From contig CAVRAY010000001.1 in assembly GCA_963719225.1 (NCBI GenBank), forward strand, positions 3,680,001 to 3,744,000: a stretch of DNA of 64,000 nt. Direction: 5' to 3'. The translations under genes and the position numbers were made by a program. Every line of letters begins with the position of its first letter. Position 1 is the stretch's first letter. This DNA is from Thermoanaerobaculia bacterium. Its GTDB lineage: Bacteria; Acidobacteriota; Thermoanaerobaculia; UBA5066. The notes under the pieces were generated by a model. It saw only the letters and a list, made by a program, of their open reading frames with translations, did no database searches and was not told the origin of the DNA. Shown here in pieces: positions 21,032-60,722 of this stretch.

Positions 21032-21120
21032 GAGCGCGGCGCGCACCCTCGCTTCCACGCGATGCCCTTCCGCTCCTCTTTCATTTGCAGAAAATTCTAT
21101 CGTACGGTTCTTGCGAGCGC

Positions 21121-28420: not shown

Positions 28421-30951
28421 CTGGCGATCGCGGCGGGATCACGTCTAGGGCCCTATGAGGTGCTTTCTGCCCTCGGCGCGGGCGGGATGGGAGAGGTGTA
28501 TCGCGCAAAGGACACGCGGCTCGGACGAACGGTCGCCTTGAAGGTACTGCCGGAGGATTTCCTGGAAGATGAAGATAGGAGACAGCGGTTCGAGAAAGAG
28601 GCGCGCCTCCTTGCGACCCTCAATCATCCCGGAATCGCCGCCATCTATTCATTCGAAGAAATCCCCGATTCTTCGGGCTCCCCCGGCTCTCCAGCCTCCT
28701 CGGCCCGCCACGTCATCGTGATGGAGCTTGTCGAGGGCGAGACTCTGCGCCACGCATTTCCGCCGGAACCGCTTCCCACGAAGAAGCTTCTCGAGATCGG
28801 GGCGCAGATCGCCGACGGGCTCGCGAAGGCGCACGCGGCCGGAATCGTCCACCGCGACCTGAAGCCCGAGAACGTCATGGTGTCCCGCGAGGGCTGGGTG
28901 AAGATCCTCGACTTCGGTCTCGCGAAGGCGGTCGAGAAGCCGTCGGACAATCTCTCGGTTGCCGCGACGGCGTCCGGAACGGTCCCGGGCATGGTCATGG
29001 GCACGGTCGGATACATGTCCCCGGAGCAGGCGAGCGGCAAGCCGGCGGACTTCCGGTCGGACCAGTTCTCTCTCGGAACGATGCTCTACGAGCTCGCGAC
29101 GGGACGGCGCGCCTTTCAGCGTGACAGCGCGGCGGAGACACTCGTGGCCGTCATCCGGGAAGAACCCGAGCCGCTCGCGAAGCTGAACGCGCGTCTTCCG
29201 GCGCCGCTTCGCTGGATCGTGGAGCGCTGTCTCGCGAAAGACGCGGACGGCCGCTATGCCTCCACGCGTGACCTCGCGCGGGACCTCGCCACGCTCCGCG
29301 ACCGGCTGTCGGAGACCGTCTCCGGCGAGATCGCCGCGGCCGATACGGTCGAGGCGCCGGCAGGCGAGCTTCCCACGTTTCAGCGACTCAGCTTCCGGCG
29401 GGGAACGATTCTCTCCGCGCGCTTCGCCCCGGATGGGCGCACGGTGATCTACGGCGCGGCGTGGGAAGGCGAGCCCTGCCGGCTTTTCTCGACGCGCCCC
29501 GAGAGCCCCGAGTCGAGCCCGCTCATGCTGCCGGACGCCGAGATCCTGGCGATCTCGCGCACGGGCCAGCTCGCGATTTCCCTCGAGCGCCACTGGGCGG
29601 GCCGGTTCATCTGGAGCGGCACTCTGGCGCAGGTTCCGCTTTCTGGCGGGGCCCCGCGCGAGCTTCTCGAAAACGTGCACTGGGCGGATTGGGGACCCGA
29701 AGGCACGCATCTCGCCGTCGTGCGCTCCGTAGCGGGCAAGACGCGGCTCGAATATCCGATCGGCAAGGTGCTTTACGAGACCGGCGGCTGGGTCAGCCAT
29801 CCGCGTGTCTCGCCGAAGGGCGACCTCGTCGCGTTCCTCGACCACCCGACCCTCGGCGACGACGAGGGCTCCGTCGTCGTGGTGGACCGCGCCGGCAAAA
29901 GCACGGTGCTCTCGAAAGACTGGATCACCGCGTACGGACTCGTGTGGTCGGGCGACGGAAAGGAGATCTCGTTCACGGCGACGCGTGTCGGCGTCGCGCG
30001 ATCGATCTGGTCAGTCACTCTCGAGGGAAAGGAGCGGCTCCTCGTCCGCACGCCCGGCGAGCTGACGATCCAGGATGCGTCCGCCGACGGCCGCATCCTC
30101 CTGACGAGCGACAACGGGAAGGTCGGGATCATCGGGCGTCCGCCCGGCACGGACCGCGACCGGGATCTCTCCCTCCTCGATTGGTCGCTCGTGCGCGACA
30201 TCTCACCGGACGGGAAGCTGATTCTTTTCGACGAGAGCGGGGAAGGCGGCGGCGCGCGCCACGCGGTCTACGTGCGCCGCACGGACGGCACGCCCGCCGT
30301 GCACCTCGGCGAAGGCTGGGCCGGGAACTTCTCGCCGGACGGCCGGTGGGTTGCGTCGCAGAGCATGGCGCCCGAGGGCCGGCGGATCACGCTCCTGCCG
30401 ACGAAAGCCGGCGAGCCCCGGGAGCTTCCGAAGGACGAGCTGCGCGTCCACCGGGCGTGGTGGCTCCCGGACGGCAAGCGAATTCTCGTGGCGGCGAACG
30501 CGCCCGGCGAGGGCCTTCGCGTCTTCGTGCAGGGCCTCGAGCGCGAGCCTCCCGGCCGATCACACCCGAGGGCATCGGGATGGGCTTCTTTCCCGTTTCT
30601 CCGGACGCGAGCGCCGTCGCAGCGCAGGGTCCGGACGGGCTCTTCTACGGATTTCCGATCGAGGGCGGAGATCCCGAATTCGTTCCCGGCCTCGTCGCGG
30701 AGGACCGCCCCATCCGGTTCTCACCCGACGGCAAGTCTCTCTTCGCCTACCGCCGCGGCGAGCTACCCGCCCACGTCATCCGCCTCGACCTCGGAACGGG
30801 CGAGAAGCATCCCTCCCAGGAGCTGATGCCGCCCGACGCCGCCGGCGTCGTGGAGATCGTTTCGGTCGTGCTCACGCCGGACGTCTCGTCGTACGCCTAC
30901 AGCTACCACCGAATCCTGTCGGACCTATTCCTCGTCGACGGGCTGAAATGA
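28421..30951 (+). pseudogene. Ser/Thr kinase + PD40/TolB-like beta-propeller, split by a frameshift near 30545 (true lesion or assembly error)
   Basis: RLGPYEVLSALGAGGMGEVY, HRDLKPEN, DFG; SPDG repeats; frame changes at VQGLE / ASRPITPEG and continues to SDLFLVDGLK stop. Confidence 0.75.
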
Positions 30952-47442: not shown

Positions 47443-48870
47443 TCAGACCGTTTTCGTCCTCTTCTCCGACAGCTCGAGGAGAATGCCGCCCGTCGCGGAC
47501 GGATGGACGAACGCCACGAGACAATCGTGCGCGCCGTCGAAGGGCTCCTCGTTCACGAGCCTCACGCCCGCGGTCTTGAGCCGCGCGAGGACCGAGCGCA
47601 CGTCCGTCACCTCGAGGCACAGATGGTGGATTCCCGGTCCGCGCGTCGCGAGCGCCCTCGCGACCGGCCCTTCGGGCGACGTCGACTCGAGGAGCTCGAG
47701 GTGCGACTCCCCGACCGCGCGGAACGACGTCACGACCTCTTGAGACGCGACCTCCTCCCGATGCTCCTCGACGAGGCCGAGGAGGTCCCAGAACGCTCCG
47801 CCTTTCTCGAGCGACGGAACGGAGATGCCGAGGTGGGAGATGCGGGAGACGAGAGAAGGGACCGGGGATGAAGATTTCTGAGAAGGTGAAGAGGGGTGAG
47901 GAGGGGCGTCGGCGGCGCCGCTTTCGAGGCGGTCGAGTAGGCTGCGCGCGGCGCTCAACGGATCTTCCGCCCGCGCCTCCACGCGCTCCGCAGCAGCCTC
48001 GAGCGCTCCACGGTCTCCCCTGAGCCTCTCTACCCTTCTAAGAAAATCTTCTTTGATCAACCCCTCGATTCGCATCTTCGTCCGCTCGACGCGCCGCGCG
48101 GCGCCCTGCGGCCCGTCGAGGAAGGCGCGGTGCTCCGCGAGCTTCGCGGCCAGCTCGTCGAGTCCCGCGCCGGTCGTGGCGACCGTCTTCACGACCGGCG
48201 GCACCCAGGCCCCGTGCTCGCCGAGCTCGAGCATCTGCAGGATCTCCTGGACGACGCGGTCCGCTCCGTCGCGGTCGGCCTTGTTCACGACGAAGAGGTC
48301 CGCGACCTCCATGAGGCCCGCCTTGATCGCCTGGATGTCGTCCCCCATGCCGGGTGTCAGGACGACGACGCAGGTCTGGGCGAGCCGGAAGACCTCGACC
48401 TCGTCCTGACCGACGCCCACCGTCTCGACGAGGATCTCGTCGTAGCCCGCGGCGTCGAGAACGTCCACGGCATCGGCCGACGCGCGCGCGAGGCCGCCGA
48501 GATGGCCGCGCGTCGCCATCGACCGGATGAGGACGCCGGGATCCGTGTAGAGGCCCTGCATCCGGATGCGGTCGCCCAGGATCGCCCCGCCCGAGAACGG
48601 CGACGACGGGTCCACCGCGACGATGCCGACCTTTCGTCCGAGGGCGCGGGCCTTGCGCGCGAGCGCAGCCGTCAGCGTGGACTTGCCGGCCCCAGGAGAG
48701 CCGGTCAGCCCCGTCACGCGTGCGCCGCCCGTTTTCGGAAAGACGAGAGCGAGGAGCTCGCGAAAACGGGGATCTCCGGCTTCGGCCCACGTGATCGCGC
48801 GCGCGACCGCGGGCACGCGCCCCTCGAGGACGCCTTCGGCGAGATCCTGTACAGCCCGCGGGACCGGCAT
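47443..48870 (-). CDS. meaB: MeaB (ArgK) GTPase fused to methylmalonyl-CoA epimerase
   Basis: GLTGSPGAGKST, VDPSSPFSGGAILGDRIRM, RSMATRGHLGGL, ETVGVGQDE, NKAD; then ISHLGISV, LELLE, GPGIHHLCLEV, GAH..AFVHPSATGGILLEL. Confidence 0.92.
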   Translation of the reverse strand: MPVPRAVQDLAEGVLEGRVPAVARAITWAEAGDPRFRELLALVFPKTGGARVTGLTGSPGAGKSTLTAALARKARALGRKVGIVAVDPSSPFSGGAILGDRIRMQGLYTDPGVLIRSMATRGHLGGLARASADAVDVLDAAGYDEILVETVGVGQDEVEVFRLAQTCVVVLTPGMGDDIQAIKAGLMEVADLFVVNKADRDGADRVVQEILQMLELGEHGAWVPPVVKTVATTGAGLDELAAKLAEHRAFLDGPQGAARRVERTKMRIEGLIKEDFLRRVERLRGDRGALEAAAERVEARAEDPLSAARSLLDRLESGAADAPPHPSSPSQKSSSPVPSLVSRISHLGISVPSLEKGGAFWDLLGLVEEHREEVASQEVVTSFRAVGESHLELLESTSPEGPVARALATRGPGIHHLCLEVTDVRSVLARLKTAGVRLVNEEPFDGAHDCLVAFVHPSATGGILLELSEKRTKTV

Positions 48871-48912
48871 CTTCGAAGTGTAGTCGACCGCGAGGCCTAG
48901 AATGACCGCCCC

Positions 48913-51003
48913 ATGGAGTCGGGAACGGCCGCCCTCGTCCCGGTGCTTTCGGAGATCGCCCGCGTCGCGTCGGAGACGCTCGAGCTCGACGTCGTCTTCC
49001 AGCGCATCTCGGCGGCGGCGGCGCGGGTTCTCGCCTTCGACGCGATGACCCTGACCTATAACGAGGGAGGAACGGGATTCTCCCTCTACACGATCGCAGG
49101 CCCGACGCTGAACGACGAGGAGCGTCGCGCATACGCGCGCTTCGTCCCGCGAAAGGATTATTCGCCTGCGCTCTGGGCCTTGTTGACGCGCGCGGGACGC
49201 ACGGACGACCTCCATTCCTTCTTCGACACGTCCTTCCCTCGAGACCAGGACCTCAAGGACGCGAAGATCCGGTCGATGCTTCGCGTGCCGCTCACCGGCA
49301 CGTCGCGCGACGGCTACCTGTCGCTTCTGAGCCTCAAGCCGGGGGCCTATACCGAGGTAGACGAGGTCCTCGTACGGCCGATCGCGGACGTCATCGCGAT
49401 GGCGTTCGAGCACGAGCGCCTCGCCTCGGACGAAAAGGACCGGCGCCGGAAGTACGAAGCGCTGCAGGCTCTCGCGCCGGCGCTCGCAAAGGCGCTCGAC
49501 GTGCGCGACGTCTTCGACCGGATCTCGGAGATCGTCCGGCCCGTCGTCCCGCACGACCGCATGGCGCTCGGCCTTCTCACCGAGGATCGCGCGGCCGTGC
49601 GCGTTTACGCGATCTCGGGCACCGGCTTCCCGGAGATCAGGGAGCCGATCCGGCTGACGCCTGCCGACCGGGCGCGCGAAGACTGGTCGACCGAGATCGT
49701 CCGTGACGTGCTCGCCGAGCTGGACCCCGCATCCGACAAATGTCGGCACCTCACTGCGGATGGGGCGCGCTCCATTCTGCGCGTGCCCATCTTCTTCGAA
49801 GGCCATTGGCAGTTCGCCGGTGGCCTGCTCTTCATCTCGCGCACGCCGAACACGTACGGCGAGGACGACATCCCCTTCGCCCGGCACGTCGCCGACCAGG
49901 TCGCCCTCGCGCTCTCCCACCAGCGCCTCGCGGAGGAGGCACGCCGAGCGGCCGACGCTCGCGCGGAAGCGGACACGCTCGAGAAGAGGGTGGCCGTCCT
50001 TTCCGTGGAGCTCGCATCGCGCGGCGGATTCGACCGGATCGTGGGAACGTCGAAGGGCTGGCACGACGTCCTCGTCCAGGCCGGCAAGGTCGCGCCCCTC
50101 GAGACGACCGTCCTCCTGACCGGCGAATCCGGCACCGGCAAGGAAGTCGTCGCCCGCGCGATCCACCGGAGCTCGGCGCGCGCGGCCGGCCCGTTCATCG
50201 CACTCAACGGGGCCGCGTTGCCGGATCAGCTCCTCGAGTCGGAGCTCTTCGGCTACGAGAAGGGCGCATTCACGGGCGCGACGGGCGGAAAGCCCGGCCG
50301 TCTCGAGCAGGCCGCCGGCGGCACGCTCTTCCTCGACGAGGCGGGCGAAATGAGCCCGGCCGTGCAGGCGAAGCTCCTGCGCGTTCTCGAGGAGCGCGAG
50401 TTCCAGCGGCTCGGAGGGACGAAGGTCCTCAAGACCGACGCGCGCGTCATCGCCGCCACGAACCGGGATCTCGCCCGCGCGATCGAGAAGGGCGAGTTCC
50501 GGGAGGACCTCTTCTACAGGCTCTCCGTCTTCGGGATTCACCTTCCACCCCTGCGCGAACGGCCGGAGGACATTTTGCCGCTCACCGAGATGTTCCTCGC
50601 CGAGCTCGGCCCGGCGGTCGGCCGGCCCGTGCCTGGCGTCTCGCGCGAGGCGAAAGAGCTCCTGCTCGCTTACCCGTGGCCCGGCAACGTCCGGGAGCTC
50701 CGGAACGCGCTCGAGCGCGCGGCGATCCTCGTGGAGGGCGGCCTGATCACGGCAGCGCATCTCCCGATCTCCGTGACGCGCCAGGATTCCCTCCCCCGCG
50801 CCGCGGCGCCGGGCGCGGCCGCAGCTTTTCTTCCACCGGAGGGCCTCGACCTCGAATCGCTCGAGCGCGACTTCGTGAAAGAGGCTCTGAAGAAAGCGCG
50901 TTTCAACAAGAGCAAGGCCGCGAAGCTCCTCGGCCTGACGCGCGCGCAGCTCTACTCGCGCATCGAGAAGTACGGGCTCGAGGGAGGTCCGGGGGGAGAC
51001 TAG
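48913..51003 (+). CDS. GAF-GAF sigma54-dependent activator (FhlA/NifA-like)
   Basis: Two GAF domains, [22 protein letters not shown], Fis HTH. Confidence 0.93.
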
Positions 51004-51026
51004 GAAATCTCCCCCGCGGCGGCACG

Positions 51027-51968
51027 CTACTTGTTCAGGCGGTAGGCCGTGAACTGCTCGCTCATACGCGAGGACTGATCCACCGTGAAGTTGTCCATGC
51101 AGGCGTCATCGGTGTAGTCCATGAAGTTCGTGATCGGGTCCTCGCCCGGAGCCTTCCGGTTCGTGCAGGAATCGCGGCCAACCGGACAGCCGAAGGCGGG
51201 CGATCTCTCGGCGTTGGTGTCGTCCACGTAGTCGCCCTTGCCGTTACACCCGCCCTGGAACGTGTGGTACAGGCCCATCCAGTGGCCCACCTCGTGCGTC
51301 GCAGTGTCGCCCTGGTCGTACGGAGACGCCGAACCGCCCGGGAGCGACGAGAAGAGAATGACGACTCCGTCGTTCGACGGAGCATGCCGGTAATCGGACG
51401 GGAACGTCGCCCAGCCCAGGAGGTTGTCTCCGATGTTCGCGGTGTAGATGTTGAGATCGTCCGCCGTGCCCTGCCGCAGCGCTCTCTTCGCCTGCCGTTC
51501 GGCCGTCGAGCCGGGAGTCATGGTGTACCAGGTCGCGTTCGTCGTCCGGTCCGTGGAGACGAGGGTGAACGAGACGCCCGACGGAAGGTAGGCGGCGTTC
51601 AGGACGTTGATCTGTTCGGCGATCTGAGAGTCCGGGACGTCCCCATTCTGGGTTCCGCTCCCACCCCTGATGACGTGAACGTACACCGGGATCTGGATGC
51701 CGGTGGCGAGGGATCGCCGTCCTCCTCGCTCGGCGAGTAGCTGCCGGGCCTCGACTTCGATGAACTCCTGCTCTTCGACGTCCACGTTGCGGGTGCCGCA
51801 GCGCCGTCCGCTCTCGATGAAGGCCCGTTGATCCACCCAGCTCGTGCCCTGGAAGACGAAGGGCTGACCCTCGCTCGGGCCTGGCCCCTGCGTGTCCCGC
51901 GGCATTTCGGCAAAGGCGGGAAGCGCGAGGAAGCAAAAAACCGTGAGAAGCCTCACCACCGACTTCAT
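51027..51968 (-). CDS. Secreted M43 zinc metalloprotease (ulilysin/pappalysin-like)
   Basis: Signal peptide, RRCG cysteine switch, [16 protein letters not shown] Met-turn. Confidence 0.93.
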
Positions 51969-52068
51969 AGGACCTCCTGAGATTCGGACTCAAGATAGGT
52001 TCGCATTCCCGCTTTCGCCAGGAGAATTCTTACGCTTCACGGTCGAGGGGGTCGCGGCGTGAGCGAGG

Positions 52069-52485
52069 CTACGTCCGCGCTTCTTTCGCCGCCGCTTTCA
52101 TGACCGCGCTGATGCGATCGAACGCGGCGCGCCAGGCCTCCGCCGTCTCGGGCGTGAAGTCGGGGCCGAGGCGCTGCGCGAACATGCACAGGAGAGCCTC
52201 GCGGAACGTGTCGAAATGGACGTCCTTCGCCCCGTAGAGCACGTGGCGGCGTCCGAGCTCTCTGAGCGACTCGTCCACGGCGCCGTCGTCATCGAGACCC
52301 TTCAGCGCGAGGCCGAGAGCCACCACGAACATCGCCCCCTGGTTCTCGACGTCCGAGGAGAAGAGACTCCTCAGAGAGGGATCGAGCGCGAACAGAGTCT
52401 CGTAGAAATCCTTGCCGGCCCCACGGGGGATCGGTCGCAGACGGTCGAAGCTCCTCCTGACGAGAGCGATCTGCTCACGGGTCAT
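52069..52485 (-). CDS. Single-domain globin (flavohemoglobin-type globin fold)
   Basis: MTREQIALVRRSF, FYETLF..P..RSLF, Q(E7), LGRRHVLYG, FTPETAEAW. Confidence 0.88.
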   Translation of the reverse strand: MTREQIALVRRSFDRLRPIPRGAGKDFYETLFALDPSLRSLFSSDVENQGAMFVVALGLALKGLDDDGAVDESLRELGRRHVLYGAKDVHFDTFREALLCMFAQRLGPDFTPETAEAWRAAFDRISAVMKAAAKEART

Positions 52486-52601
52486 CTCGCACCTCGCGAA
52501 GCTTCGCATGCACGACGCTCCGCACCCCGGAAGATACATCCCGCGGGCACGTCGCGACCCGATCCATTAGCACTATATTGATCGTCAGCGGAGGAGCGGG
52601 C

Positions 52602-53393
52602 ATGACTCACGAAGAATTTCTGAACAGCCTCCTGGCCGCCAACGCGGGCCAGACGTCGCCGTCCCTTTCCAGCCTGACCGAGGACGAGGCCGTGTGCCGC
52701 TGGCTGGCCTTTCTCGTGATGTGCTACGTCCGAATGACGTACGCGGAGGCCGCCCGGGCGGGACTCGCGCCGTACGTCAGGAGGACATGGTCCAGATGGG
52801 GAAGCGCCCGGGGCGAAGAGGTCGAGCTGGCGATGCCCAACCCGGGCGGGGAGCTGACGTTCCGCGTCCACGTTTCACCGGTGAACGGCTACTTCTTCCG
52901 CCTCGAAGACGCGGCACGCCACAACTGGTTCGACGTGCGCGGCATCGCCAGCCGGGAGGGCGCCCGCATTTCCATCCAGGTGTCGCATTGGGACACGTGG
53001 GTCATGGTGGATGCCCCGAGGGCGCCCGTTCGCCCGACGACGCTGACCTTCCAGCCGGCCGCCTGCTGCCGGCGGTCGCTCGCGAGGATCCGCGAGATCA
53101 CGAGCAGCCTCGCGGCGGCGCGGGCTCTCCTGGGCGTGGGACAGTTCGAAGGGCTGTTCACGGCCGTCACGGCACGCCCGTCGAGCGCCGCCGACGTCGT
53201 GGATTCCGTGAGCGGCGCCTATGACCTGTCCGACTCGGACTGGGAAACCTGGGCACAGGCCATGGCGTCGTTTCCAGCCGTCCAGCAGGAGCAAGTCCAG
53301 AACGTGGCGTTCGAGGAGATCGACACCCACACGAGCGAGCCGGCCCGGTTGCGCTTCTGGACGATCGTCTACGACAGCGGGAGAGTCCAGTAG
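52602..53393 (+). CDS. Hypothetical protein
   Basis: GGAGG SD, 263 codons, no recognisable motif. Confidence 0.65.
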   Translation: MTHEEFLNSLLAANAGQTSPSLSSLTEDEAVCRWLAFLVMCYVRMTYAEAARAGLAPYVRRTWSRWGSARGEEVELAMPNPGGELTFRVHVSPVNGYFFRLEDAARHNWFDVRGIASREGARISIQVSHWDTWVMVDAPRAPVRPTTLTFQPAACCRRSLARIREITSSLAAARALLGVGQFEGLFTAVTARPSSAADVVDSVSGAYDLSDSDWETWAQAMASFPAVQQEQVQNVAFEEIDTHTSEPARLRFWTIVYDSGRVQ

Positions 53394-53484
53394 ATCCTCG
53401 ATCTCCGTCCTGAGCGCCTTTCTCCGATCCGGAGAGCTTCGAGAGCGGATCTTTCCTCCAGGCCCGCAGGGCGGGCCTGGAATG

Positions 53485-53503
53485 TACTTTGCGACGCAAA
53501 GTA
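53485..53503. promoter_or_regulatory. Palindromic operator upstream of creD
   Basis: TACTTTGC-GAC-GCAAAGTA perfect 8-bp inverted repeat ending 3 nt before ATG. Confidence 0.65.
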
Positions 53504-53506
53504 GAC

Positions 53507-54907
53507 ATGCGATATCCGCTCCTCGCCCGCTCTTTCGTCGTCCTCTCCCTCGTCGTCCTCCTCCTCGTGCCGCTCCAGATGATCCGCGGCGTCATCGACG
53601 AGCGCGCCGCCCGCCGCGCGGCGGCGATCGCGGAGGTGGCTTCGACGTGGGGCGCCGCCCAGACGCTCGTCGGACCCGTCATCGTCGTGCCGTTCCAGGT
53701 CGAGAGGAAAGAAACCTGGGTCGATCCGGCGGTATCGCCGGGAGCACCTCATGGCGGCGTCGTCCGTGAGCGCTCGCGCGTGGACGTCGAGCAGGCGATT
53801 TTCCTTCCGGACACCCTGAAGATCGAAGGACGCCTCGTTCCCGAGCGTCGCTGGCGCGGCATCTTCGAAGTCGTCGTGTACCGCACCGAGCTCGCCGTGA
53901 GCGGGACGATGCCGGCCCCGGACCTCGGTCCGCTCGGGATCCCGGCCGAGGACATCCACTGGAAGGACGCCTTTCTGTCCGTGGGGCTCTCGGATACGCG
54001 GGGTATCCGCGAAGAGGTCCGGCTCCTCTGGGACGGGGACCCGACGCCCTTTCGCCCCGGCCCCGGCGCCGCGTGCCTCGCGCCCTCCGGCATCCACGCG
54101 CCGCTTCCTTCTCTCGAGGGATCCTCGGCCCTTCCGCACGAGTTCGCGTTCACGGTGAGCCTTCAGGGCACGGAAGCGCTCGCCATGACGCCGCTCGGGG
54201 CCTCGACGGACGCCGTGCTGAGGTCTCCGTGGCCGTCCCCGAGCTTCTTCGGCGCGTTTCTTCCCGACCGGCGGGCGGTGACCGCCGAAGGCTTCGACGC
54301 GGCGTGGAAAGTGTCGTCGTTCGGACGGAGCTACCCGCAGCGCTGGCGGAGTGACCGCGGCTTTCCAGGCGATGCCGTCGCGAAATCCGCGTTCGGCGTG
54401 CGTCTCTTCCTTCCCGCCGACGCGTATCAGCAGGCGACGAGGTCTCTGAAGTACGCGATCCTCTTCGTGGGGCTCACGTTTCTCGCCTTTGCGCTTTTCG
54501 AGACGTTCGGGGGGCTGCGCCTCCACCCTCTCCAGTACCTCTTCGTCGGCTTCGCGCTCGTCCTCTTCTATCTGCTCCTCGTCTCCCTCTCCGAGCACGT
54601 CGGATTCGGCGTGGCCTATCTCGCCGCGGCGTCGGCAACGACCGCACTCGTGAGCGCCTATTGCGCGTGGGTGCTCGTCGTGAAGGCGCGTGCGCTCGTC
54701 ATGGCGGGAGCGCTCGCGGCGCTCTACGGCTACCTTTTCGTCCTCCTTCGACTCGAAGACTGTGCGCTCCTTCTCGGATCGATCGCGCTCTTCATCCTTC
54801 TCGCCGCGCTCATGCTCGCGACACGGCGCGTGGACTGGTGGTCCGTAGGCGGCCCGGCGCGGCCGCCCCGGAGCTTCACGCCTCCCCAGCGGGCGACCGC
54901 TCCATGA
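53507..54907 (+). CDS. creD: Inner membrane protein CreD
   Basis: LLLVPL.MI..VIDER, WGAAQTLVGP, SPWPSPSFFGAFLP, YQQATRSLKYAILF, LHPLQYLFVG, TRRVDW. Confidence 0.92.
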   Translation: MRYPLLARSFVVLSLVVLLLVPLQMIRGVIDERAARRAAAIAEVASTWGAAQTLVGPVIVVPFQVERKETWVDPAVSPGAPHGGVVRERSRVDVEQAIFLPDTLKIEGRLVPERRWRGIFEVVVYRTELAVSGTMPAPDLGPLGIPAEDIHWKDAFLSVGLSDTRGIREEVRLLWDGDPTPFRPGPGAACLAPSGIHAPLPSLEGSSALPHEFAFTVSLQGTEALAMTPLGASTDAVLRSPWPSPSFFGAFLPDRRAVTAEGFDAAWKVSSFGRSYPQRWRSDRGFPGDAVAKSAFGVRLFLPADAYQQATRSLKYAILFVGLTFLAFALFETFGGLRLHPLQYLFVGFALVLFYLLLVSLSEHVGFGVAYLAAASATTALVSAYCAWVLVVKARALVMAGALAALYGYLFVLLRLEDCALLLGSIALFILLAALMLATRRVDWWSVGGPARPPRSFTPPQRATAP

Positions 54908-54978
54908 GAAGGCATGACGACGCGCTCGCAGCCGCGGCGCGCGCCTCGTGGGCGACTGTCGCGTTCTATGCTCTGCCC

Positions 54979-55662
54979 GTGTCCGGGCCCGCGCTTCCCC
55001 ACTTCGACGCCGTTCCGCTCTTCCGGTGCCTCAACGAGGAGGAGCGAAAGCTCCTCGGCCCCGTTTGCCGGGCCGTCGCATACGAAAAGGGAGAAGAGGT
55101 CTTTCGCGAAGGGGACGAGGCGGCGGACCTGTGCTTCGTGGCGATCGGCCGCGTGAAGGTCGTCAAGGCGGGTCCGGACCGCGACGTGATCCTCGGCCTC
55201 TTCGGCGCGGGCGAGCCCATCGGAGCCGTCGCGCTCTTCGAAGGCAAGCGCTTCCCGGCGTCGGCCGTCGCGCTCGAGCCTTCCACGATCCTGCGCGTGC
55301 CCGAGCGGGATTTCTTCGCGACCATCGACGCGCACCCCGAGATGACGCGGCGCCTCCTGCAGGGCCTCATGCTCCGGCAGTTCGAGATCTCGCGCCGCCT
55401 CGCGGACCTGACCGGCCCGGTCGAGAAGCGGATCGCGCGGCTCTTCCTCATGCTCGCGCGGCGTGTCGGGAGGCGCGAGGGCGCCAGCGCGACCATCCCC
55501 CTCGCGCTTTCCCGCCAGGAGATCGCGGACCTGACCGCGACGACCGTCGAGACCGCGATCCGCGTCATGAGCCGCTGGGGAAAGGAGAACGTCGTGATCA
55601 CCCAGCCGGATGGGTTCACGGTTCCAGATCTCGGCGCGCTCGACGCGCTGACCGAGGACTAG
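54979..55662 (+). CDS. Crp/Fnr-family regulator (DNR/NnrR-like, no FNR Cys cluster)
   Basis: VPLF..L, FREGD, GRVKVVK, FPASAVALE, VEKRIARL, LSRQEIADLTATTVETAIRVMS; GTG after TATGCT-N6. Confidence 0.9.
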   Translation: MSGPALPHFDAVPLFRCLNEEERKLLGPVCRAVAYEKGEEVFREGDEAADLCFVAIGRVKVVKAGPDRDVILGLFGAGEPIGAVALFEGKRFPASAVALEPSTILRVPERDFFATIDAHPEMTRRLLQGLMLRQFEISRRLADLTGPVEKRIARLFLMLARRVGRREGASATIPLALSRQEIADLTATTVETAIRVMSRWGKENVVITQPDGFTVPDLGALDALTED

Positions 55663-56960
55663 GCGGTCGCCACCCGTACCGGACCGCTCTTCGGGCGGAG
55701 CTTCCACGCGACATACGGCTTCGCGAGCGTGCGCAGCGCCGCGAGCTTCGTCTCGTAGAGACGCGAGGAGAACGTCGGCGGCACGAGGTCGGCCGCTTCT
55801 TCGGGCTGGACGACGAGCGACACCTGGATTCCCGGGAGGATTCCCACGGGGAGTCCGGCGCGCTGGACCGCTTTCCAGAGATACGCGAAGACCTCGCGCA
55901 TCTCCTGCGGCTTCGGCGGAGGCTCGTTCTCGAGCGCGCTCCCGACCGTGGGACGGAAGATGCAGACGGTGGGAAAGGCTCCCGCATTCACGATGCGGTC
56001 GATGCCCCGCAGCGTGGCCTCGAGAGGCTCGAGCCCCGCGATGATCTCACCCGAGACTTTTCCCGGCCCGAGCTTCTTCGCCGTGTACTCCATCGCCTCG
56101 AAGAACGCGTTCTGGCCGAGCGTCATCTCCTTCCCGGGGCAGAGCTTCGCGAACGTCGCGGGGTCCTCGAATTCGTAGCAGAACGAGAAGTGATCCGTTC
56201 CGGCGGCGATCAGGTCGTCGTACTCGTTGAACTTGCGGCGCGGCACGGGAACGGCCTGGACGCCGATGAAGCCGCCCACCTCGGCGCGGAGCCGCTTCAC
56301 GAAGGGCTCGCACTGCCTGAGGCCGTGAACCAGCTCGAGGTCGTCGCGATCCTCGAAGTGATACCCCGTGTTCAGGTGCGTGAAGATGGAGCCGGATTCG
56401 TCGCGCGCGGCCTTCGCGACCTCGATCACGTCGTCCACCTTCTTCTTCGATTCCTCGGCCGTGCCCACGTTGCGGCCGGTCGTGCAGAAGGCGCACGCCG
56501 GCGACGACGGCAGGTTCCAGTACAGGCAGGCGTTCGAGACGTAGATTCCGAGGTACGTGCCCTGCAGGACGCCGACGCGGCTCATCTCGACGCCGCTCGA
56601 CGTCTTCCGCGAATACCAGACGGGCTCCTCGGGGATCTCGACGGGATAGTGGTCGCCCTGACGCGCGTCGCACAGGATGTAGCCGCGCGTCGTCTTCATC
56701 AGCAGGAAGGGAGACCTCGCCGCGAAGGGCTCGACGACGGGCACGTTCACCCAGATCTTCTTGCGCGGCGACGGAAGGATCAGCTCCAGGCCCGAGCCGA
56801 GGCCAGCACGCGTTCGCGAGATGCGCCGGCCGTCGGCATTCACGTCGAAGGACGGGTCGACACGCAGGCCCCAGCAGAAGAGCTCGATTTCGAGCTCCAC
56901 GGGTTTGAACAAAGTCGTCCTCCCACCGGGAGCATGTGGTGCCGGGGCCGGAGCGGCCAT
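55659..56960 (-). CDS. Radical SAM protein with CX10CX2C motif
   Basis: CLYWNLPSSPACAFC, LNTG, FAKLCPGK, IIAGLEP, VCIFRPTVGS. Confidence 0.8.
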   Translation of the reverse strand: MAAPAPAPHAPGGRTTLFKPVELEIELFCWGLRVDPSFDVNADGRRISRTRAGLGSGLELILPSPRKKIWVNVPVVEPFAARSPFLLMKTTRGYILCDARQGDHYPVEIPEEPVWYSRKTSSGVEMSRVGVLQGTYLGIYVSNACLYWNLPSSPACAFCTTGRNVGTAEESKKKVDDVIEVAKAARDESGSIFTHLNTGYHFEDRDDLELVHGLRQCEPFVKRLRAEVGGFIGVQAVPVPRRKFNEYDDLIAAGTDHFSFCYEFEDPATFAKLCPGKEMTLGQNAFFEAMEYTAKKLGPGKVSGEIIAGLEPLEATLRGIDRIVNAGAFPTVCIFRPTVGSALENEPPPKPQEMREVFAYLWKAVQRAGLPVGILPGIQVSLVVQPEEAADLVPPTFSSRLYETKLAALRTLAKPYVAWKLRPKSGPVRVATA

Positions 56961-56984
56961 GATGCAGGGACTTCAGGGAGCGGG

Positions 56985-57026
56985 ATGACGCCCGTCATAC
57001 CGGTCGGGCGCCGTCAGGGCTAATTT
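56985..57026 (+). promoter_or_regulatory. FNR/DNR-like box and -10 element of nnrS
   Basis: ATGAC-N4-GTCAT palindrome centred at 56991.5; TAATTT at 57021-57026. Confidence 0.7.
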
Positions 57027-57042
57027 GGCCGCGGAGAGAGAC

Positions 57043-58386
57043 ATGGCTTCCATCCAGACCGCTCCCTGCTGCAGCGCCTGCGGGTCGAACGCCCCGGCCG
57101 CACCTCCCCGTAACCTCCTCCCCTTCTTCGTGCTGACCGCCCTCGCCCTCGCTGTCACATTGGGGGTCTCGACGGGCGGCTGGGCGATCTGGCAGATGGC
57201 CTTCGCCACGGGCACGGTCCTGCCGTCCCATCTCCAGCTCCACGCGCACGTCCAGCTCCTCGGGTTCGCCGGCCTCTTCATCCTCGGCGTCGCGCTCCAC
57301 GCCCTGCCGCGCATCCTGGGAGCCGCCCCGCCATCCCGAAGGGTGCTTCTGGCCGTGCTTCTGGGCCTCGGCGGCGGCGCCCTGCTGCGCGCGTTCGGCC
57401 AGCCGCTCGCGCCCTGGGCGGGCGGTCGATTCCTTTCGCTTCTCTCGGGTGCATTCGAGCTTGCCGGAGTCTTCGCGTTCCTCGCGTGGGCGCTGCCGGT
57501 CCTCGCCGTGCGCCGCTCCTTCGGCGACCCGCTCTCGTTCCATGTCCTGCTCGGATCCTTCTGGGCCGCGCTCGCCGCCGTACTCTCCGGCGCGCAGTCG
57601 ATCTTCCTCGCGGGCCATGCGGAAGCCGAAATGCCGGGCGCTCTCGTCGAGCCCTTCTATGCAGTCGCTCTCTACGGACTCGTCCTCTCGTTCGTGCTCG
57701 GGTTCGGCTCGAGAATGGTGCCGGCATTCCTCGGGCTTCCCCGGCCCACGCCGAAGAGCGCGCGTCCCGTCGCCGGTCTCCAGGCGACGGGCGTCCTGCT
57801 CCTCGCGGCCGCGTGGATCCCCGGCCTGACGCCTCAGGTGTCGCGCGGCCTCGTGCTCGGAGGAACGCTTTTCCTGGCGTCGGCGGTGGTCCTCTTTCTC
57901 GCGGCAGCCCGGATCTTCGCGCCGTTCTCCAAGGCTCCCGGAGCGCTCTCCTTGCGCGCGCCGTTCGCCTTTCTCGGGCTCTTCGCGGCGATCTCCGTCG
58001 CGGCCGGGATCGGCGAGCTCTCCGGGGTGTCAGTGCACAAATTCGTGTGGGACGGCGCGCGGCACGTCTACACGATCGGGTTCCTCACCCTTCTCGTCGT
58101 CGGCATGAGCCTGCGCGTGGTCCCGGCCTTCACGGGGAAGGCGCTCGTGCGTCCCCGGCAGGCGCGTCTCGCGCTCGCCTTCGTGGGCGCCGCGGCCTTC
58201 GTCCGCGCGCTGCAGATCCCGGTCGCGATCGGCTGGGGCGGCCTGCCTCTCTACCGGCTCGTCGGCACGACGGGCGTGTTCGCGACGGTGGGGCTGCTCC
58301 TGTGGGCTCACGTCCTCGTCGGGACGCTCAGGCCGAGGGCGAAAGCCGCCGCTTCGCTCGTCTTGCCGGCGCGTGCGCCCGCCTGA
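57043..58386 (+). CDS. nnrS: NnrS-family membrane protein
   Basis: About 12 hydrophobic segments; HAHVQLLGF..ILG, SRMVPAF, ARHVYTIGF..VGMSLRVVPAF. Confidence 0.7.
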   Translation: MASIQTAPCCSACGSNAPAAPPRNLLPFFVLTALALAVTLGVSTGGWAIWQMAFATGTVLPSHLQLHAHVQLLGFAGLFILGVALHALPRILGAAPPSRRVLLAVLLGLGGGALLRAFGQPLAPWAGGRFLSLLSGAFELAGVFAFLAWALPVLAVRRSFGDPLSFHVLLGSFWAALAAVLSGAQSIFLAGHAEAEMPGALVEPFYAVALYGLVLSFVLGFGSRMVPAFLGLPRPTPKSARPVAGLQATGVLLLAAAWIPGLTPQVSRGLVLGGTLFLASAVVLFLAAARIFAPFSKAPGALSLRAPFAFLGLFAAISVAAGIGELSGVSVHKFVWDGARHVYTIGFLTLLVVGMSLRVVPAFTGKALVRPRQARLALAFVGAAAFVRALQIPVAIGWGGLPLYRLVGTTGVFATVGLLLWAHVLVGTLRPRAKAAASLVLPARAPA

Positions 58387-58400
58387 CGCCCGGAGCGCTC

Positions 58401-58604
58401 CTAGCCCTTGAAGCGCTTGCGGCGCGGGAGCATGTCGTTGATCTCGCGAAGCGCCATCTCGAAGCCCTTCGTCACGCCCTCGGGCTCCTCGCCGCGCTGG
58501 ACCTTCATCGTGTATTCGTCCCTCAGGCGCGCCAGGCGATGGCCGAGCGCCCACAGGATCGTTTCGACGGCCTTTTGCTCGCCCTCGGATCTCTGTTTCG
58601 ACAT
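58401..58604 (-). CDS. Small helical hypothetical protein (67 aa)
   Basis: MSKQRSEGEQKAVETILWALGHRL..; typical codon usage; fills the gap; CAGAAT-N7-ATG. Confidence 0.65.
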   Translation of the reverse strand: MSKQRSEGEQKAVETILWALGHRLARLRDEYTMKVQRGEEPEGVTKGFEMALREINDMLPRRKRFKG

Positions 58605-58631
58605 GCGCGCCATTCTGGACCAGGATGCGTC

Positions 58632-59369
58632 ATGCCCCTCCGCGTCGTTCTCGTGAGGACGCACAACCCCGGCAATCTCGGGGCGGCGGCGCGGGCCGCG
58701 AAGAACTTTGGAGCAGAGATTTCTTTGCTCCGACCGCGCACCCGTCTCGATCATCCCGATGCCGTGGCTTTCGCGTCCGGCGCGGAAGATTTTCTTAGAA
58801 GGGTGAATGTCGTCCCGGCGTGGGGCGACCTGCTCGCCTCTCGAGACACCCTGGTCGCCCTTTCGTCGCTGCGCGGCCGGGTCCCGCGCGGGCTGCCGCC
58901 TCCCACGACTTTCGAAGAAGTCTCCTCCTCTCTTCGCCGCGGCCGGCGCGTCGCGCTCGTGTTCGGGCCCGAGCGCGGCGGGCTCACGACGGAGGAGCTG
59001 CGGCTCTGCGACGCGCGCCTCCGGATCGAAACACGCGACGAGTTTCCAACGCTCAACCTGGCACAGTCAGTGGCGATCACTCTCGCGTCTTTATTCCCTT
59101 TCGAAGCACCGCGCCGAAGGCGCGGAACCACCGGTGCGAAGAGAGAGGTGGCAACCGCAAAGGAAATCCGCCGCCTCCTGGCCTCTTTCAAAGAGACTCT
59201 CTCTTCGGCGGGTTACCCGGGCCGGGGCCACTCGAAGGAGGTCGTGGCGGAGCTCGAGTCTTACCTGCGCCGCGGAATGCCGACTTCCCGTGAAGTCACG
59301 CTGCTTCTCGGCGCTCTCGCGGCCGTGAGCCGCGCGCTCGGCGTCGACCGTTCGAAACGCCGGAGCTGA
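58632..59369 (+). CDS. SPOUT RNA methyltransferase (TrmJ/TrmH family)
   Basis: RVVLVRTHNPGNLGAAARAAKNFG, ASGA, ALVFGPERGGLTTEEL, LNLAQSV. Confidence 0.9.
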   Translation: MPLRVVLVRTHNPGNLGAAARAAKNFGAEISLLRPRTRLDHPDAVAFASGAEDFLRRVNVVPAWGDLLASRDTLVALSSLRGRVPRGLPPPTTFEEVSSSLRRGRRVALVFGPERGGLTTEELRLCDARLRIETRDEFPTLNLAQSVAITLASLFPFEAPRRRRGTTGAKREVATAKEIRRLLASFKETLSSAGYPGRGHSKEVVAELESYLRRGMPTSREVTLLLGALAAVSRALGVDRSKRRS

Positions 59370-59393: not shown

Positions 59394-60722
59394 CAGGCTG
59401 CTGAAGAAAGGGCTCTTTTTCAAAGGAGCTTGAGCGGGAGAAGACACGTCAAGCTGAAAGAGGGGATTGCTTCGAGAGAGTGAGTCCGTGCTGCTCGCCT
59501 TTTTCGGCCCGCTTCGGTCGCACCGAGGGGCGCTTCAGGGGGAATCAGGCGGTCGAGGACTCCATTCGCGCCATTCGGACGAGGTTGTAGGCCGTCATCA
59601 CGCTGAGGACGTGAGCCGCCACGCGGGCGAGTCCTCGGAAGCGCGTCTTGGCCAGGCCTCCGATGGTCTTACTCCAGCCGAAGATTTCTTCGACGCGCTT
59701 CCTGATTCGCTGGCTCACGGCGTAGCCCGCGTGTCTCGTCGTCCTTCGGTCGATGGCGCTGCGCCTGTTGGTGGTGTTCTGGGCCACGTGGGGCGTGACG
59801 CCTCTCTCTCGGAGCCTTTCGATGAAATCCCTCGTGTCGTAGCCCTTGTCGCCGGCCAGCGTGATGCGCTTGTCCGAGCCCAGCTCGTCGACCATGCCCA
59901 GTGCGGCCGACCTCTCCCCGTAGCCGTCGGCCGTCGTTACGCGCGCCTTCACGCACAGTCCGTTTCTGTTCTCCATCAAGACGTGGCCGAGGTAGCACAG
60001 CTGCGAAGGCTGGCCGTCTCCCTTCTTGTAGAGCTTGGCGTCGGGATCGGTCGTCGAGGCGTGCGTGTCGTTGCGCCTCTTCTGGCCGCGAAAGTCGACA
60101 TCGGCGTTGCGGCCGCCAGGAGCTGGCGGCTCATCGCCGCCCTTACCGTCCTTGTCCTTCCGGGGCTGGAAGCTCTTCAAGGAGGCGTTCGCTTCGATCA
60201 GCGTGCCGTCCACGGTGAAGTGCTCGTCCGAGAGAAGAAACTTCTTGCGGGCCTGTGCGACGACTTCCGAGAAGAACTCCTCGAAGACCTCGGCCTCCAA
60301 CAGTCTCTGGCGGTTCTTCGAGAAGGTCGTCGGATCGAAGGCCGGTGCAAGCCCCGGCATGTCCAGGAACCAGCGGAAGAGAAAGTCGTACCCGAGCCGC
60401 TCGCAGAAGAGCCGCTCGCTTCTCACGCTGTACAGCGCGATGAGGATCTGCGCCTTGAGAAGCATCTCGGGCGGAATCGATGGACGCCCTCGCTCCGAGT
60501 ACAGCCTGGCGAGCTTGGGCTCGAGACGCCTGAGCGCTTCGTCTGCAAGCGCCTTCACCTTGCGGATCGGGTGGTCCCGCGGCACGAGCTCCTCGGGCGT
60601 CATCGTCACGACAAGATCGACCTGCTTTTCGTTGTCTCCACGCATGCACACCAAGGTGCAGCCGCATCGCGCAGCAGTCAATGCCTCGCCGCGATTTTCA
60701 GGAGCCCTTTTTCAGCAGCCTG
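59394..60722 (-). mobile_element. IS5-family insertion sequence, 1329 bp, CTAG target duplication
   Basis: Ends CAGGCTGCTGAAGAAAGGGCTC and (reverse complement) CAGGCTGCTGAAAAAGGGCTC; CTAG at 59390-59393 and 60723-60726. Confidence 0.93.
59545..60645 (-). CDS. IS5-family DDE transposase
   Basis: VPRDHPIR, GRPSIPPE, YSVRSER, FTVDGTLIEA, TTDPDA, DKGYD, RKRVEEIFGW, AYNLVRM. Confidence 0.94.
   Translation of the reverse strand: MRGDNEKQVDLVVTMTPEELVPRDHPIRKVKALADEALRRLEPKLARLYSERGRPSIPPEMLLKAQILIALYSVRSERLFCERLGYDFLFRWFLDMPGLAPAFDPTTFSKNRQRLLEAEVFEEFFSEVVAQARKKFLLSDEHFTVDGTLIEANASLKSFQPRKDKDGKGGDEPPAPGGRNADVDFRGQKRRNDTHASTTDPDAKLYKKGDGQPSQLCYLGHVLMENRNGLCVKARVTTADGYGERSAALGMVDELGSDKRITLAGDKGYDTRDFIERLRERGVTPHVAQNTTNRRSAIDRRTTRHAGYAVSQRIRKRVEEIFGWSKTIGGLAKTRFRGLARVAAHVLSVMTAYNLVRMARMESSTA

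Follow-up and report, generated by a model that had tools for sequence, protein, structure and literature searches.

A hyper-abundant polar DNA site arranged in facing pairs and biased toward the chromosome terminus in two related bacterial genera

An identical 20-mer within two coding sequences of the window, a 64,000-nucleotide stretch of Thermoanaerobaculia DNA analysed here at full length, raises the question of whether it reflects chance, a shared peptide or a DNA signal superimposed on the protein code. Both copies lie at the coordinates and on the strands given by an earlier interpretation made from the letters without database searches (the sequence-only reading), and both encode EDFLRRV, one in a MeaB-Mce fusion and the other in a SpoU/TrmH methyltransferase (Table 1). 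The variant at 47870-47887 (plus strand) in the meaB-mce linker is likewise found as described. The window holds no other match with up to three mismatches, none of 100 dinucleotide shuffles contains any match to the 20-mer, and TTCTNAGAA occurs four times in the window against 0.34 expected. Across the genome, the 20-mer has five exact copies, 21 at up to one mismatch and 166 at up to four. Each 20-mer has a facing partner, at 160 bp in the meaB pair and 119 bp in the trmH pair; that of the trmH copy had been overlooked by the sequence-only reading.

Table 1. Positions of the sites, spacer and host genes in the window
Feature	Position	Strand	Remarks
Weak match without partner	21074..21101	-	17.6 bits; may be chance
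Site, left arm of third pair (93 bp)	28550..28577	+	21.8 bits; precedes called start of Ser/Thr kinase-like gene
Site, right arm of 93-bp pair	28642..28669	-	28.6 bits
Host gene: MeaB GTPase fused to glyoxalase-fold (Mce-like) domain	47443..48870	-	
Site, left arm of meaB pair	47867..47894 (core 47876-47884)	+	33.5 bits; in MeaB-Mce linker; reads PSSPSQKSSSP on gene strand
Spacer of meaB pair	47895..48025	.	centre distance 160 bp; ordinary coding DNA, end of MeaB and linker
Site, right arm of meaB pair	48026..48053	-	38.9 bits; contains 20-mer 48032-48051
Host gene: SpoU/TrmH-family RNA methyltransferase	58632..59369	+	
Site, left arm of trmH pair	58783..58810	+	31.1 bits; contains 20-mer 58785-58804; at same place in 20 of 21 full-length orthologs
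Facing partner in trmH pair	58901..58928	-	19.2 bits; 119 bp; reads PTTFEEVSS; present in 19 of 21 orthologs
Weak extra site in trmH	59090..59117	-	13.9 bits; up to 27 bits in some relatives, two without the 58901 site among them
Weak extra site in trmH	59177..59204	-	15.5 bits; up to 31 bits in relatives

The 20-mer belongs to a polar site of about 28 bp, in which the consensus T-TTCTTNGAARG is bordered by purines on both sides. This motif is the most over-represented word in the genome, with 781 sites against 81 in controls, an excess of the kind that the sequence-only reading had proposed to count. The palindromic core it described holds only for the TTC-N3-GAA dyad; the site as a whole is not palindromic, its flanks being unequal and its central bases uneven (TTA 341, TTC 213, TTT 69 and TTG 53 among the 781). 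All 28 relatives in the genus and all 8 in a sister genus, both made up of uncultured Acidobacteria, are enriched for the motif, with background levels elsewhere, and outgroup G028 shows no dialect of it, the oriented words there being 7-bp tandem repeats and a REP-like family. Chance and peptide convergence are ruled out by the shuffles, the genome-wide excess and synonymous resampling, and an assembly artefact is rejected because the motif recurs in metagenome contigs and 36 further genomes. A triplex-forming mirror repeat was also considered, and no mirror axis stands out.

The unit is a convergent pair. Among 358 neighbours at most 300 bp apart, 269 are convergent and nine divergent, with about 14 expected per orientation. 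Spacing sets in near 65 bp, peaks at 75-77 bp and declines gradually up to 300 bp. Per 100 bp, the density of pairs is 47 at 30-60 bp and 310 at 60-100 bp, followed by 192, 114 and 54, and reaches the background level at about 400 bp. In seeded sets, the cutoff of 64 is a product of the search pattern, and the floor is read from unseeded data only. Neither a helical period (10-11 bp) in the spacing (p 0.43-0.86) nor helical phasing of A/T dinucleotides is detected. Spacers consist of unrelated host DNA, conserved coding DNA included, and that of the meaB pair diverges faster than its arms in related populations, which are represented by contigs from sequencing runs only, with shares up to 0.20. 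The sequence within a pair is GC-rich and that outside it, for about 100 bp, AT/purine-rich, alike in genic and intergenic pairs. One gene encloses both arms in 158 of the 269 convergent pairs, clusters are unevenly spaced (CV 1.23), and about a quarter of the strong sites (190 of 781) stand without a facing partner (at least 12 bits, at most 300 bp). The sequence-only reading had mentioned neither convergent pairing at 65-300 bp nor a gradient toward the terminus, which together form the main feature of the motif.

Either strand of a pair presents a purine arm followed by its complement across a loop of free length, an arrangement that would suit a single-strand structure or recombination substrate whose arms pair in RNA or single-stranded DNA (attC- or terminator-like) or flank a segment that can invert. 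Such a role is scarcely credible against the remaining evidence: the arms do not covary within pairs (15.61 versus 15.49 ± 0.13, the observed identity being reached in 391 of 2000 shuffles), their duplex energy is the same as with swapped partners, spacers show no folding, short loops are the rarest class and Rfam yields no match. The spacer is kept in frame, with no inversion, in 21 full-length trmH orthologs, and no strand-changing joint appears among the 15 of 22 joint rows listed (related-population contigs only). The absence of covariation, duplex-energy gain and spacer folding therefore points to arms that act as independent double-stranded sites.

About two-thirds of the sites lie in genes, where they occupy all six frames and are as frequent in sense (261) as in antisense (259). 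This parity, together with the scatter of sites along genes, rules out a role as promoter, operator or ribosome-binding site. Coding sequence contains 369 core matches, against 12-20 in ten synonymous resamplings, and rare codons in sites are conserved in orthologs at 81% versus 22%; the proposal, made from the two copies, of a dispersed signal within genes that is selected over and above the protein code is thus borne out, the selection being purifying. Conserved sites favour gene regions in which the proteins diverge more (amino-acid identity 0.63-0.70 versus 0.80). Compared with the outgroup, sites accompany short in-frame insertions of about eight residues (599 extra residues versus 25).

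REP, REPIN and BIME elements form inverted doublets, and Rickettsia palindromic elements (RPEs) insert in frame in genes. These likenesses, along with the insertions that accompany sites and the intergenic inverted repeat elements that outgroup G028 possesses, could suggest a decayed mobile repeat (REPIN, MITE or RPE-like), the pairs being ends of a widely inserted and then retained element. Unlike REP/REPIN, however, the present pairs are often genic and have neither a conserved spacer nor a hairpin, the inserted unit is a single arm (20-30 bp) rather than the whole pair, and the lack of arm covariation and the strong synonymous conservation across the genus likewise count against such an origin. 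The RAYT/IS200 domain (Y1 transposase, PF01797) was not found in G000 or G001 and was found in G013 and two motif-less genomes. A mobile origin is thus largely refuted and is considered very improbable.

Neisseria DUS and Pasteurellaceae USS resemble the motif in several respects: according to parts of two reports, they are not palindromic, number in the hundreds with copies on both strands, lie in ORFs in about two-thirds of cases, are conserved in permissive, divergent parts of core genes, are scarce in islands and newly acquired DNA, and have reshaped the proteome (PMC2817400, PMC2397512). A comparable self signal for uptake or transfer would spread by molecular drive, pair-bearing DNA being preferentially taken up, packaged or recombined and sites accumulating where proteins tolerate them. 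Accessory islands are nearly empty of sites here too, gain and loss often involve a whole block (25 of 32 absent cases differ by at least 12 bp), and ComEC is present. Yet ComEC is found in all five genomes tested, both motif-less ones included. Moreover, DUS and USS are described in the same partial sources as more even than random and as sufficient singly (PMC2817400, PMC2397512), and inverted pairs are reported, in the part available, solely as close intergenic terminators of at most 21 nt (PMC2397512). In contrast, the present sites form pairs 65-300 bp apart, mostly within genes, with uneven, terminus-biased clusters and net peptide insertions. Uptake drive is accordingly rated unlikely, though deserving serious weight; the uptake-type analogy of the sequence-only reading survives in several population features and fails on even spacing and short terminator pairs.

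The chromosome has one origin and one terminus, as located by GC skew, parS and dif, and when sites are mapped onto it their density proves about three-fold higher in the terminus half than in the origin half. Per 100 kb, the terminus and origin halves contain 17.3 and 6.2 sites in genes, 80.8 and 26.6 in intergenic DNA, and 20.5 and 5.9 in genes with an outgroup ortholog, and the origin half keeps 7-10 sites per 100 kb. The bias recurs in G044, where 54 of 80 plus-strand matches lie within 1 Mb of dif (p 0.001). In G000, dif is flanked by two pairs, and a site lies within 212 bp of dif at 17 of 21 dif loci of the genus, which are kin rather than independent, compared with 34 of 162 comparable intergenic regions; the other four loci have no such site. 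Leading-strand skew is absent (376 versus 405), while other G-rich words in the same genome are skewed, and the motif consequently differs from KOPS, Chi and AIMS, whose skew flips at dif.

Tracking enzymes are characterized by asymmetric sites, a head-to-head rule and spacing without phase, and type III restriction-modification likewise relies on asymmetric sites acting head to head. The motif shares these traits, and its near absence from islands would also suit a self mark for a DNA-tracking nuclease or translocase, offering Chi-like protection or a reversed type III/McrBC-like two-site logic that spares or processes facing-site DNA. Nevertheless, this appears improbable: besides the missing strand skew and the unexpected terminus gradient, restriction target pairs should be avoided rather than strongly enriched, and no strong ResIII (PF04851) match occurs in G000, G044 or G451 (best E about 1e-12), whereas two motif-less genomes possess one. 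Copies in phage were rejected, since 16 of the 17 viral matches lie in contigs of 24-42% GC and are read as chance.

The explanation tentatively favoured, at slightly less than even confidence, is that the polar conserved sites, mainly as facing pairs, are bound by a putative lineage-specific protein whose complexes meet or bridge and thereby organise the terminus half. Such a protein would read double-stranded DNA, and two oriented complexes would come together across the 65-300 bp between facing sites. The soft floor near 65 bp may represent two abutting footprints, and the lack of helical phase would fit sliding, or a link with some flexibility, better than a rigid loop. A facing pair reads alike from either direction and would therefore serve either chromosome arm with no strand skew; its job would probably be chromosome folding or late segregation. 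A more specific form, in which the roughly 300 convergent pairs serve as oriented loading or anchoring points where ring- or clamp-like complexes stand head to head and pattern the terminus half, is possible but doubtful. It could be likened to CTCF or opposed ORC sites in eukaryotes and would require selection strong enough to build eight-residue insertions into hundreds of proteins.

By analogy only, the spacing curve bears a likeness to loading in yeast from a pair of opposed ORC sites, which, in the part of the study available, peaks at 70-90 bp, remains efficient at 300 bp and needs no fixed register for the asymmetric sites that load the MCM double hexamer (PMC12440816). ORC and MCM are, however, eukaryotic proteins, and the present chromosome has a single origin and terminus, so nothing indicates initiation at the pairs. 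Against an architectural role, an advantage in transmission for each site would account for peptide insertions in hundreds of genes more readily than a slight structural benefit per site, the bias is three-fold rather than a matS-like confinement, about a quarter of strong sites are partnerless, and the screen described next found no binder.

The gene-content screen for such a binder took in 821 of the 4057 genes and, for one outgroup, 2.0 of its 3.8 Mb; it yielded no binding protein, seven candidates or families being common to motif-less relatives or non-discriminating. ParB2, encoded beside dif, is present in 87 of 91 genomes of the order. Its recognition helix is unchanged in genera that lack the motif, and its candidate site is a different palindrome; a canonical parS, distinct from the motif, is located at C2:333828. 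Two families that lack the motif have an extra HU paralog (59 of 61 genomes in one, 6 of 7 in the other), a Myb/HTH-like TPR protein is found in 58 of 61, and SMC and XerC/D-type integrases in all five genomes. A 70-residue ORF beside trmH is family-wide, an ECF sigma factor with a likely anti-sigma has a genus-specific ortholog and only distant paralogs in the sister genus, and a 133-residue Cys-rich ORF is missing from G013. A 95-residue basic ORF (G000 C1:1828525), with a strong match in G013, a weak one in G451 (E 4e-4), none in G439, G449 or G469 and no Pfam or Atlas match, is a weak candidate lead.

parS/ParB and NBS/Noc employ a 16-bp palindrome, and matS/MatP a palindrome confined to the terminus domain. 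Like the motif, these are position-biased protein sites that may lie in genes, and the parS and NBS half-sites loosely recall its TTC...GAA dyad. They differ, however, in being single palindromes with tens of copies, against about 800 polar paired sites here, and parS and NBS have four central bases instead of three; as the order's extra ParB does not follow the distribution of the motif either, the parS/matS comparison drawn in the sequence-only reading does not stand. The highly repetitive motif (HRM) of Lactococcus lactis is mostly intergenic with fixed distances, and preferred pair distances were reportedly noted by Mrazek in 2002. It is similarly abundant, non-palindromic and, in the part of the source available, absent from phage and transposon genes (PMC2526093), but has another sequence and belongs to another phylum. 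Cyanobacterial HIP1, on a partial account, is hyper-abundant, conserved beyond codon needs and without a promoter link, with a proposed role in chromosome structure and an unproven function (PMC5861425). The motif is similar in these respects; HIP1, though, is an 8-bp palindrome, GCGATCGC, with tens-of-kb periodicity, whereas the present site spans 28 bp, is polar and combines local pairing with a gradient toward the terminus. The motif thus joins the hyper-abundant selected motifs as a class in a loose sense. Its novelty rests on an anatomy that fits none of the systems compared, and the mechanism is put forward as a proposal.

Few abundant chromosome signals are known in bacteria, namely Chi, KOPS, parS, matS, uptake sequences and HIP1, and none of them, to our knowledge, depends on two polar sites that lie within genes and face one another over 65-300 bp of unconstrained spacer. 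The reader of the motif would be a new sequence-specific DNA machine that probably arose in the ancestor of the two genera. The boundary between presence and absence is sharp within one family, separating 29 + 8 motif-bearing genomes from the other 26, and the gene that reads the motif should therefore be findable by a full comparison of gene content. In addition, the signal adds low-complexity peptides (EDFLRRV, SPSKKS and FLEGE) to core proteins, and such signal-derived peptides matter when linkers and indels in these proteomes are interpreted.

Both 20-mers and their variant are present at the positions claimed by the sequence-only reading, and each 20-mer encodes EDFLRRV, one in a MeaB-Mce fusion and the other in a SpoU/TrmH methyltransferase; the 20-mer was matched in 0 of 100 shuffles of the window. 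In the genome that holds the window (G000; 4.75 Mb, contigs C1 and C2, 68% GC), TTTCTTAG is the top 8-mer, with 216 copies against 11 expected under an order-4 Markov model. An iterated weight matrix describes the site as ~20 purine-rich bases, then (A/T)T TTC TT N GAA (G/A/T) G (G/T) GAA, then purines. Because its symmetry is limited to TTC-N3-GAA, the site has a direction. A score of at least 18 bits is reached by 781 sites, compared with 81 in controls (reversed and complemented), and one of at least 25 bits by 539, compared with 17. The motif is a genuine DNA signal, under selection and specific to its lineage, whose two-site grammar is unusual; the mechanism proposed for it below is tentative, with a probability slightly short of even.

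The 11-mer TTCTTNGAARG is enriched in all 28 other genomes of the genus (162-633 matches; controls 7-30) and in all eight of the sister genus (23-133; controls 2-17). These tallies take in genome G025 as one row, and none of the conclusions depends on that genome by itself. In 26 genomes from eight further genera of the family, counts stay close to background (0-17; controls 0-16). An exact 12-mer was not found in 16 genomes of two other families, and an exact 11-mer reaches at most 7 matches outside the genus among 400 genomes drawn from the phylum. Of 151 genomes from the class, 12 carry the paired pattern, and every one of them belongs to the genus or the sister genus. A scan for this pattern in one genome per species gave at least 80 loci in relatives; of the 80 listed, 79 bear the title Thermoanaerobaculia or Acidobacteri(ot)a and the remaining one Patescibacteria. 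The outgroup G028, over 2.0 of its 3.8 Mb, yields a single 18-bit match and nothing equivalent to the pair system. That stretch (C1:1-2000000; L414-L513) contains dozens of elements in which 7-bp tandem repeats of the AAATTCG/AAATCCG type are arranged as inverted copies; another 7-bp type, TTGCGAG, and a REP-like family spaced at 55 bp also occur there. Heptamer repeats occur beside four-helix-bundle genes, and the 7-bp elements may, by analogy, resemble these.

Gene calls by the analysis's own caller (4057 genes, 90% coding) place 520 of the 781 sites within genes, 261 sense and 259 antisense, in all six frames and distributed along genes, and the weight matrix is identical for genic and intergenic sites. 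The sequence-only reading took the 20-mer for a dispersed intragenic signal (parS/matS-like or uptake-type) atop the protein code; this holds in part, a selected DNA signal being supported by 369 cores in coding sequence versus 12-20 across ten synonymous resamplings. Sites contain 56 of the 270 TTA codons in the whole genome. Among 217 alignments of 93 genes with relatives (kinase paralogs and alignments outside 60-95% identity being left out), A/T-ending codons are kept in 81% of cases in the core (n=619) versus 22.5% beyond 150 bp (n=4069). Site retention (213/268) is biased upward, since these loci were fetched by motif. The trmH orthologs, fetched by protein and thus free of this bias, keep the rare codons CTT (8% usage) in 19 of 21 and AGA (2.6%) in 18 of 21. 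Amino-acid identity near sites is 0.63-0.70 versus 0.80 in the same 93 genes; against outgroup orthologs, it is 0.22 at sites and 0.56 elsewhere (72 genes, 134 sites, 26 of them outside the alignment). Extra residues near sites number 599 in G000 versus 25 in the outgroup (72 versus 10 events), and 799 versus 403 away from sites. A site is missing in 32 of 677 close comparisons, where gain is not separable from loss and three of the cases shown are artefacts of how the compared segment was cut; in 25 of the 32, the version with the site exceeds the other by at least 12 bp. In G000 genes near sites, GC at four-fold sites falls toward the site within ~150 bp (0.75, 0.82 and 0.87, then 0.89-0.90) and codon use in the spacers is relaxed.

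Features of the window and of G000 (other contig coordinates refer to fetched loci, L)
Feature	Location	Remark
20-mer, meaB copy	window 48032-48051 (-)	
20-mer, trmH copy	window 58785-58804 (+)	
20-mer variant	window 47870-47887	
MeaB fused to Mce-like glyoxalase domain	window 47443-48870 (-)	
meaB pair	window	spacing 160 bp
trmH pair	window	spacing 119 bp
Third pair	window 28550-28669	
Basic ORF, 70 residues	window 58401-58613 (-)	divergent from trmH
Weak motif match, 16.8 bits	window 59459-59486	beside transposase gene 59545-60681
Same 28-mer at second transposase copy	C1:2035040	
Ser/Thr kinase tandem array	C1:2293000-2320000	
parS	C2:333828	
dif	C1:2037575	
Second parA-parB operon	C1:2037575-2039524 (L155:671-2620)	also L159-L218
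HU paralog by ftsK	C1:2998739 (L278:1492-1776)	
Myb/GcrA-like TPR protein	C2:189237 and C2:628873; L130:4128-4982	two copies

Within the window, MeaB-Mce has a match, mostly full-length, in 27 of 28 genus genomes, and its linker is largely motif-encoded. The short ORF beside trmH has no Pfam match; 26 of 27 family genomes have it, compared with 0 of 33 from two sister families. The 16.8-bit match, which adjoins both transposase copies, is probably part of the element's end.

Among 844 sites of at least 16 bits, 358 neighbours lie within 300 bp, of which 269 are convergent (facing each other), 46 and 34 tandem, and 9 divergent, where local density predicts ~14 each; 158 of the 269 pairs have both arms inside one gene. 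A strong facing partner accompanies 533 of the 781 strong sites, and one of at least 12 bits 591, versus 12 and 17 for divergent partners. Unseeded neighbours in relatives' loci follow the same pattern (137 convergent, 7 divergent, 74 tandem). Pairs are sparse at spacings under 60 bp, densest at 60-100 bp and down to background by ~400 bp, without 10-11 bp periodicity; a spacing of 75-76 bp occurs in 61 of 199 strong seeded pairs of relatives (search span 64-99 bp, orthologous pairs included). Spacers are mutually unrelated, apart from small clusters no stronger than chance and a group of 16 members that fall mostly in paralogous Ser/Thr kinase genes. About nine such paralogs form a tandem array, each with a 93-bp motif pair near its start. 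GC inside pairs is 0.73 (genic) and 0.72 (intergenic) versus 0.68 and 0.64, and the outside flanks are richer in AT and purines to ~100 bp.

Pair arms show no covariation, their duplex energy is no better than that of swapped partners, and spacer folding does not exceed that of controls. Indifference to strand and frame, together with the lack of arm covariation, points to independent double-stranded sites for a putative protein. Two oriented complexes at facing sites might meet by sliding or via a flexible link. The orientation rule, soft floor, mode of ~76 bp and phase-free tail would fit this better than a rigid short loop, an expectation that comes from looping repressors. Comparison features of matS, NBS, parS, KOPS, Chi, REP, RPE, attC and type III enzymes are general background, and the likeness to Lactococcus HRM is partly drawn from features of this kind. 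Yeast ORC/MCM shows a similar spacing curve (PMC12440816). No description of the motif or of such a bacterial pair rule was found in the full-text literature searched, which included PMC5217627, PMC2817400, PMC2397512, PMC13404874, PMC12440816, PMC5861425 and PMC2526093; the exact word turned up in one paper on an unrelated subject, and supplement motif tables (e.g. PMC5217627) or subscription journals could contain a description.

As candidate readers of the motif, ParB2, HU paralogs, SMC, tyrosine recombinases, ResIII, RAYT, ComEC and five proteins from a partial gene subtraction have distributions that do not convincingly track it. The subtraction covered 821 of 4057 genes in relatives and half of a single outgroup, and it is quite plausible that the factor lies outside this set. 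The second parA-parB operon adjoins dif order-wide, with ParB2 in 87 of 91 genomes of the order. Inside parB2 lies a 16-bp palindrome, TGTCGGCGCGCCGACA, conserved in most loci and single-copy in G000; operon and palindrome probably make up a ParABS system at the terminus, distinct from the motif. The HU paralog next to ftsK is present order-wide, but a search of 24 genomes in six genera of the family did not find it. Another order-wide protein has TPR repeats and an N-terminus that looks Myb/GcrA-like by eye.

GC skew, parS and dif define a single origin and a single terminus in G000. Per 100 kb, the five deciles on the origin side have 7-10 sites and the five on the terminus side 18-30, without strand skew. 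The ratio is about three in genes, intergenic DNA, outgroup-ortholog genes and core-rich windows, and two- to three-fold inside the main GC classes. Of 80 plus-strand matches in the related genome G044 (66 with listed positions), at least 54 are no more than 1 Mb from dif. Accessory islands are almost devoid of sites; the ribosomal protein cluster does carry them. The main rival is that an uptake-type drive spread the sites. It would account for the empty islands and for what proteins pay, but not for long convergent pairs or the terminus gradient (PMC2817400, PMC2397512). G-rich words skewed to the leading strand, e.g. CGGGGGAG (292 versus 95), are KOPS candidates, and TAACGATA (29 versus 1.3) and CTAGAATC (58 versus 5.6) are also over-represented.

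The dif of G000 is flanked by two pairs. Of 21 dif loci in the genus, 17 have a site no more than 212 bp away, as does 1 of 3 in the sister genus, compared with 0 of 5 elsewhere in the family and one weak match among 30 loci from the two remaining families; these genomes are kin, and the dif association therefore represents one or a few events. From its terminus gradient and its presence at dif, the motif may have a role in chromosome folding or late segregation.
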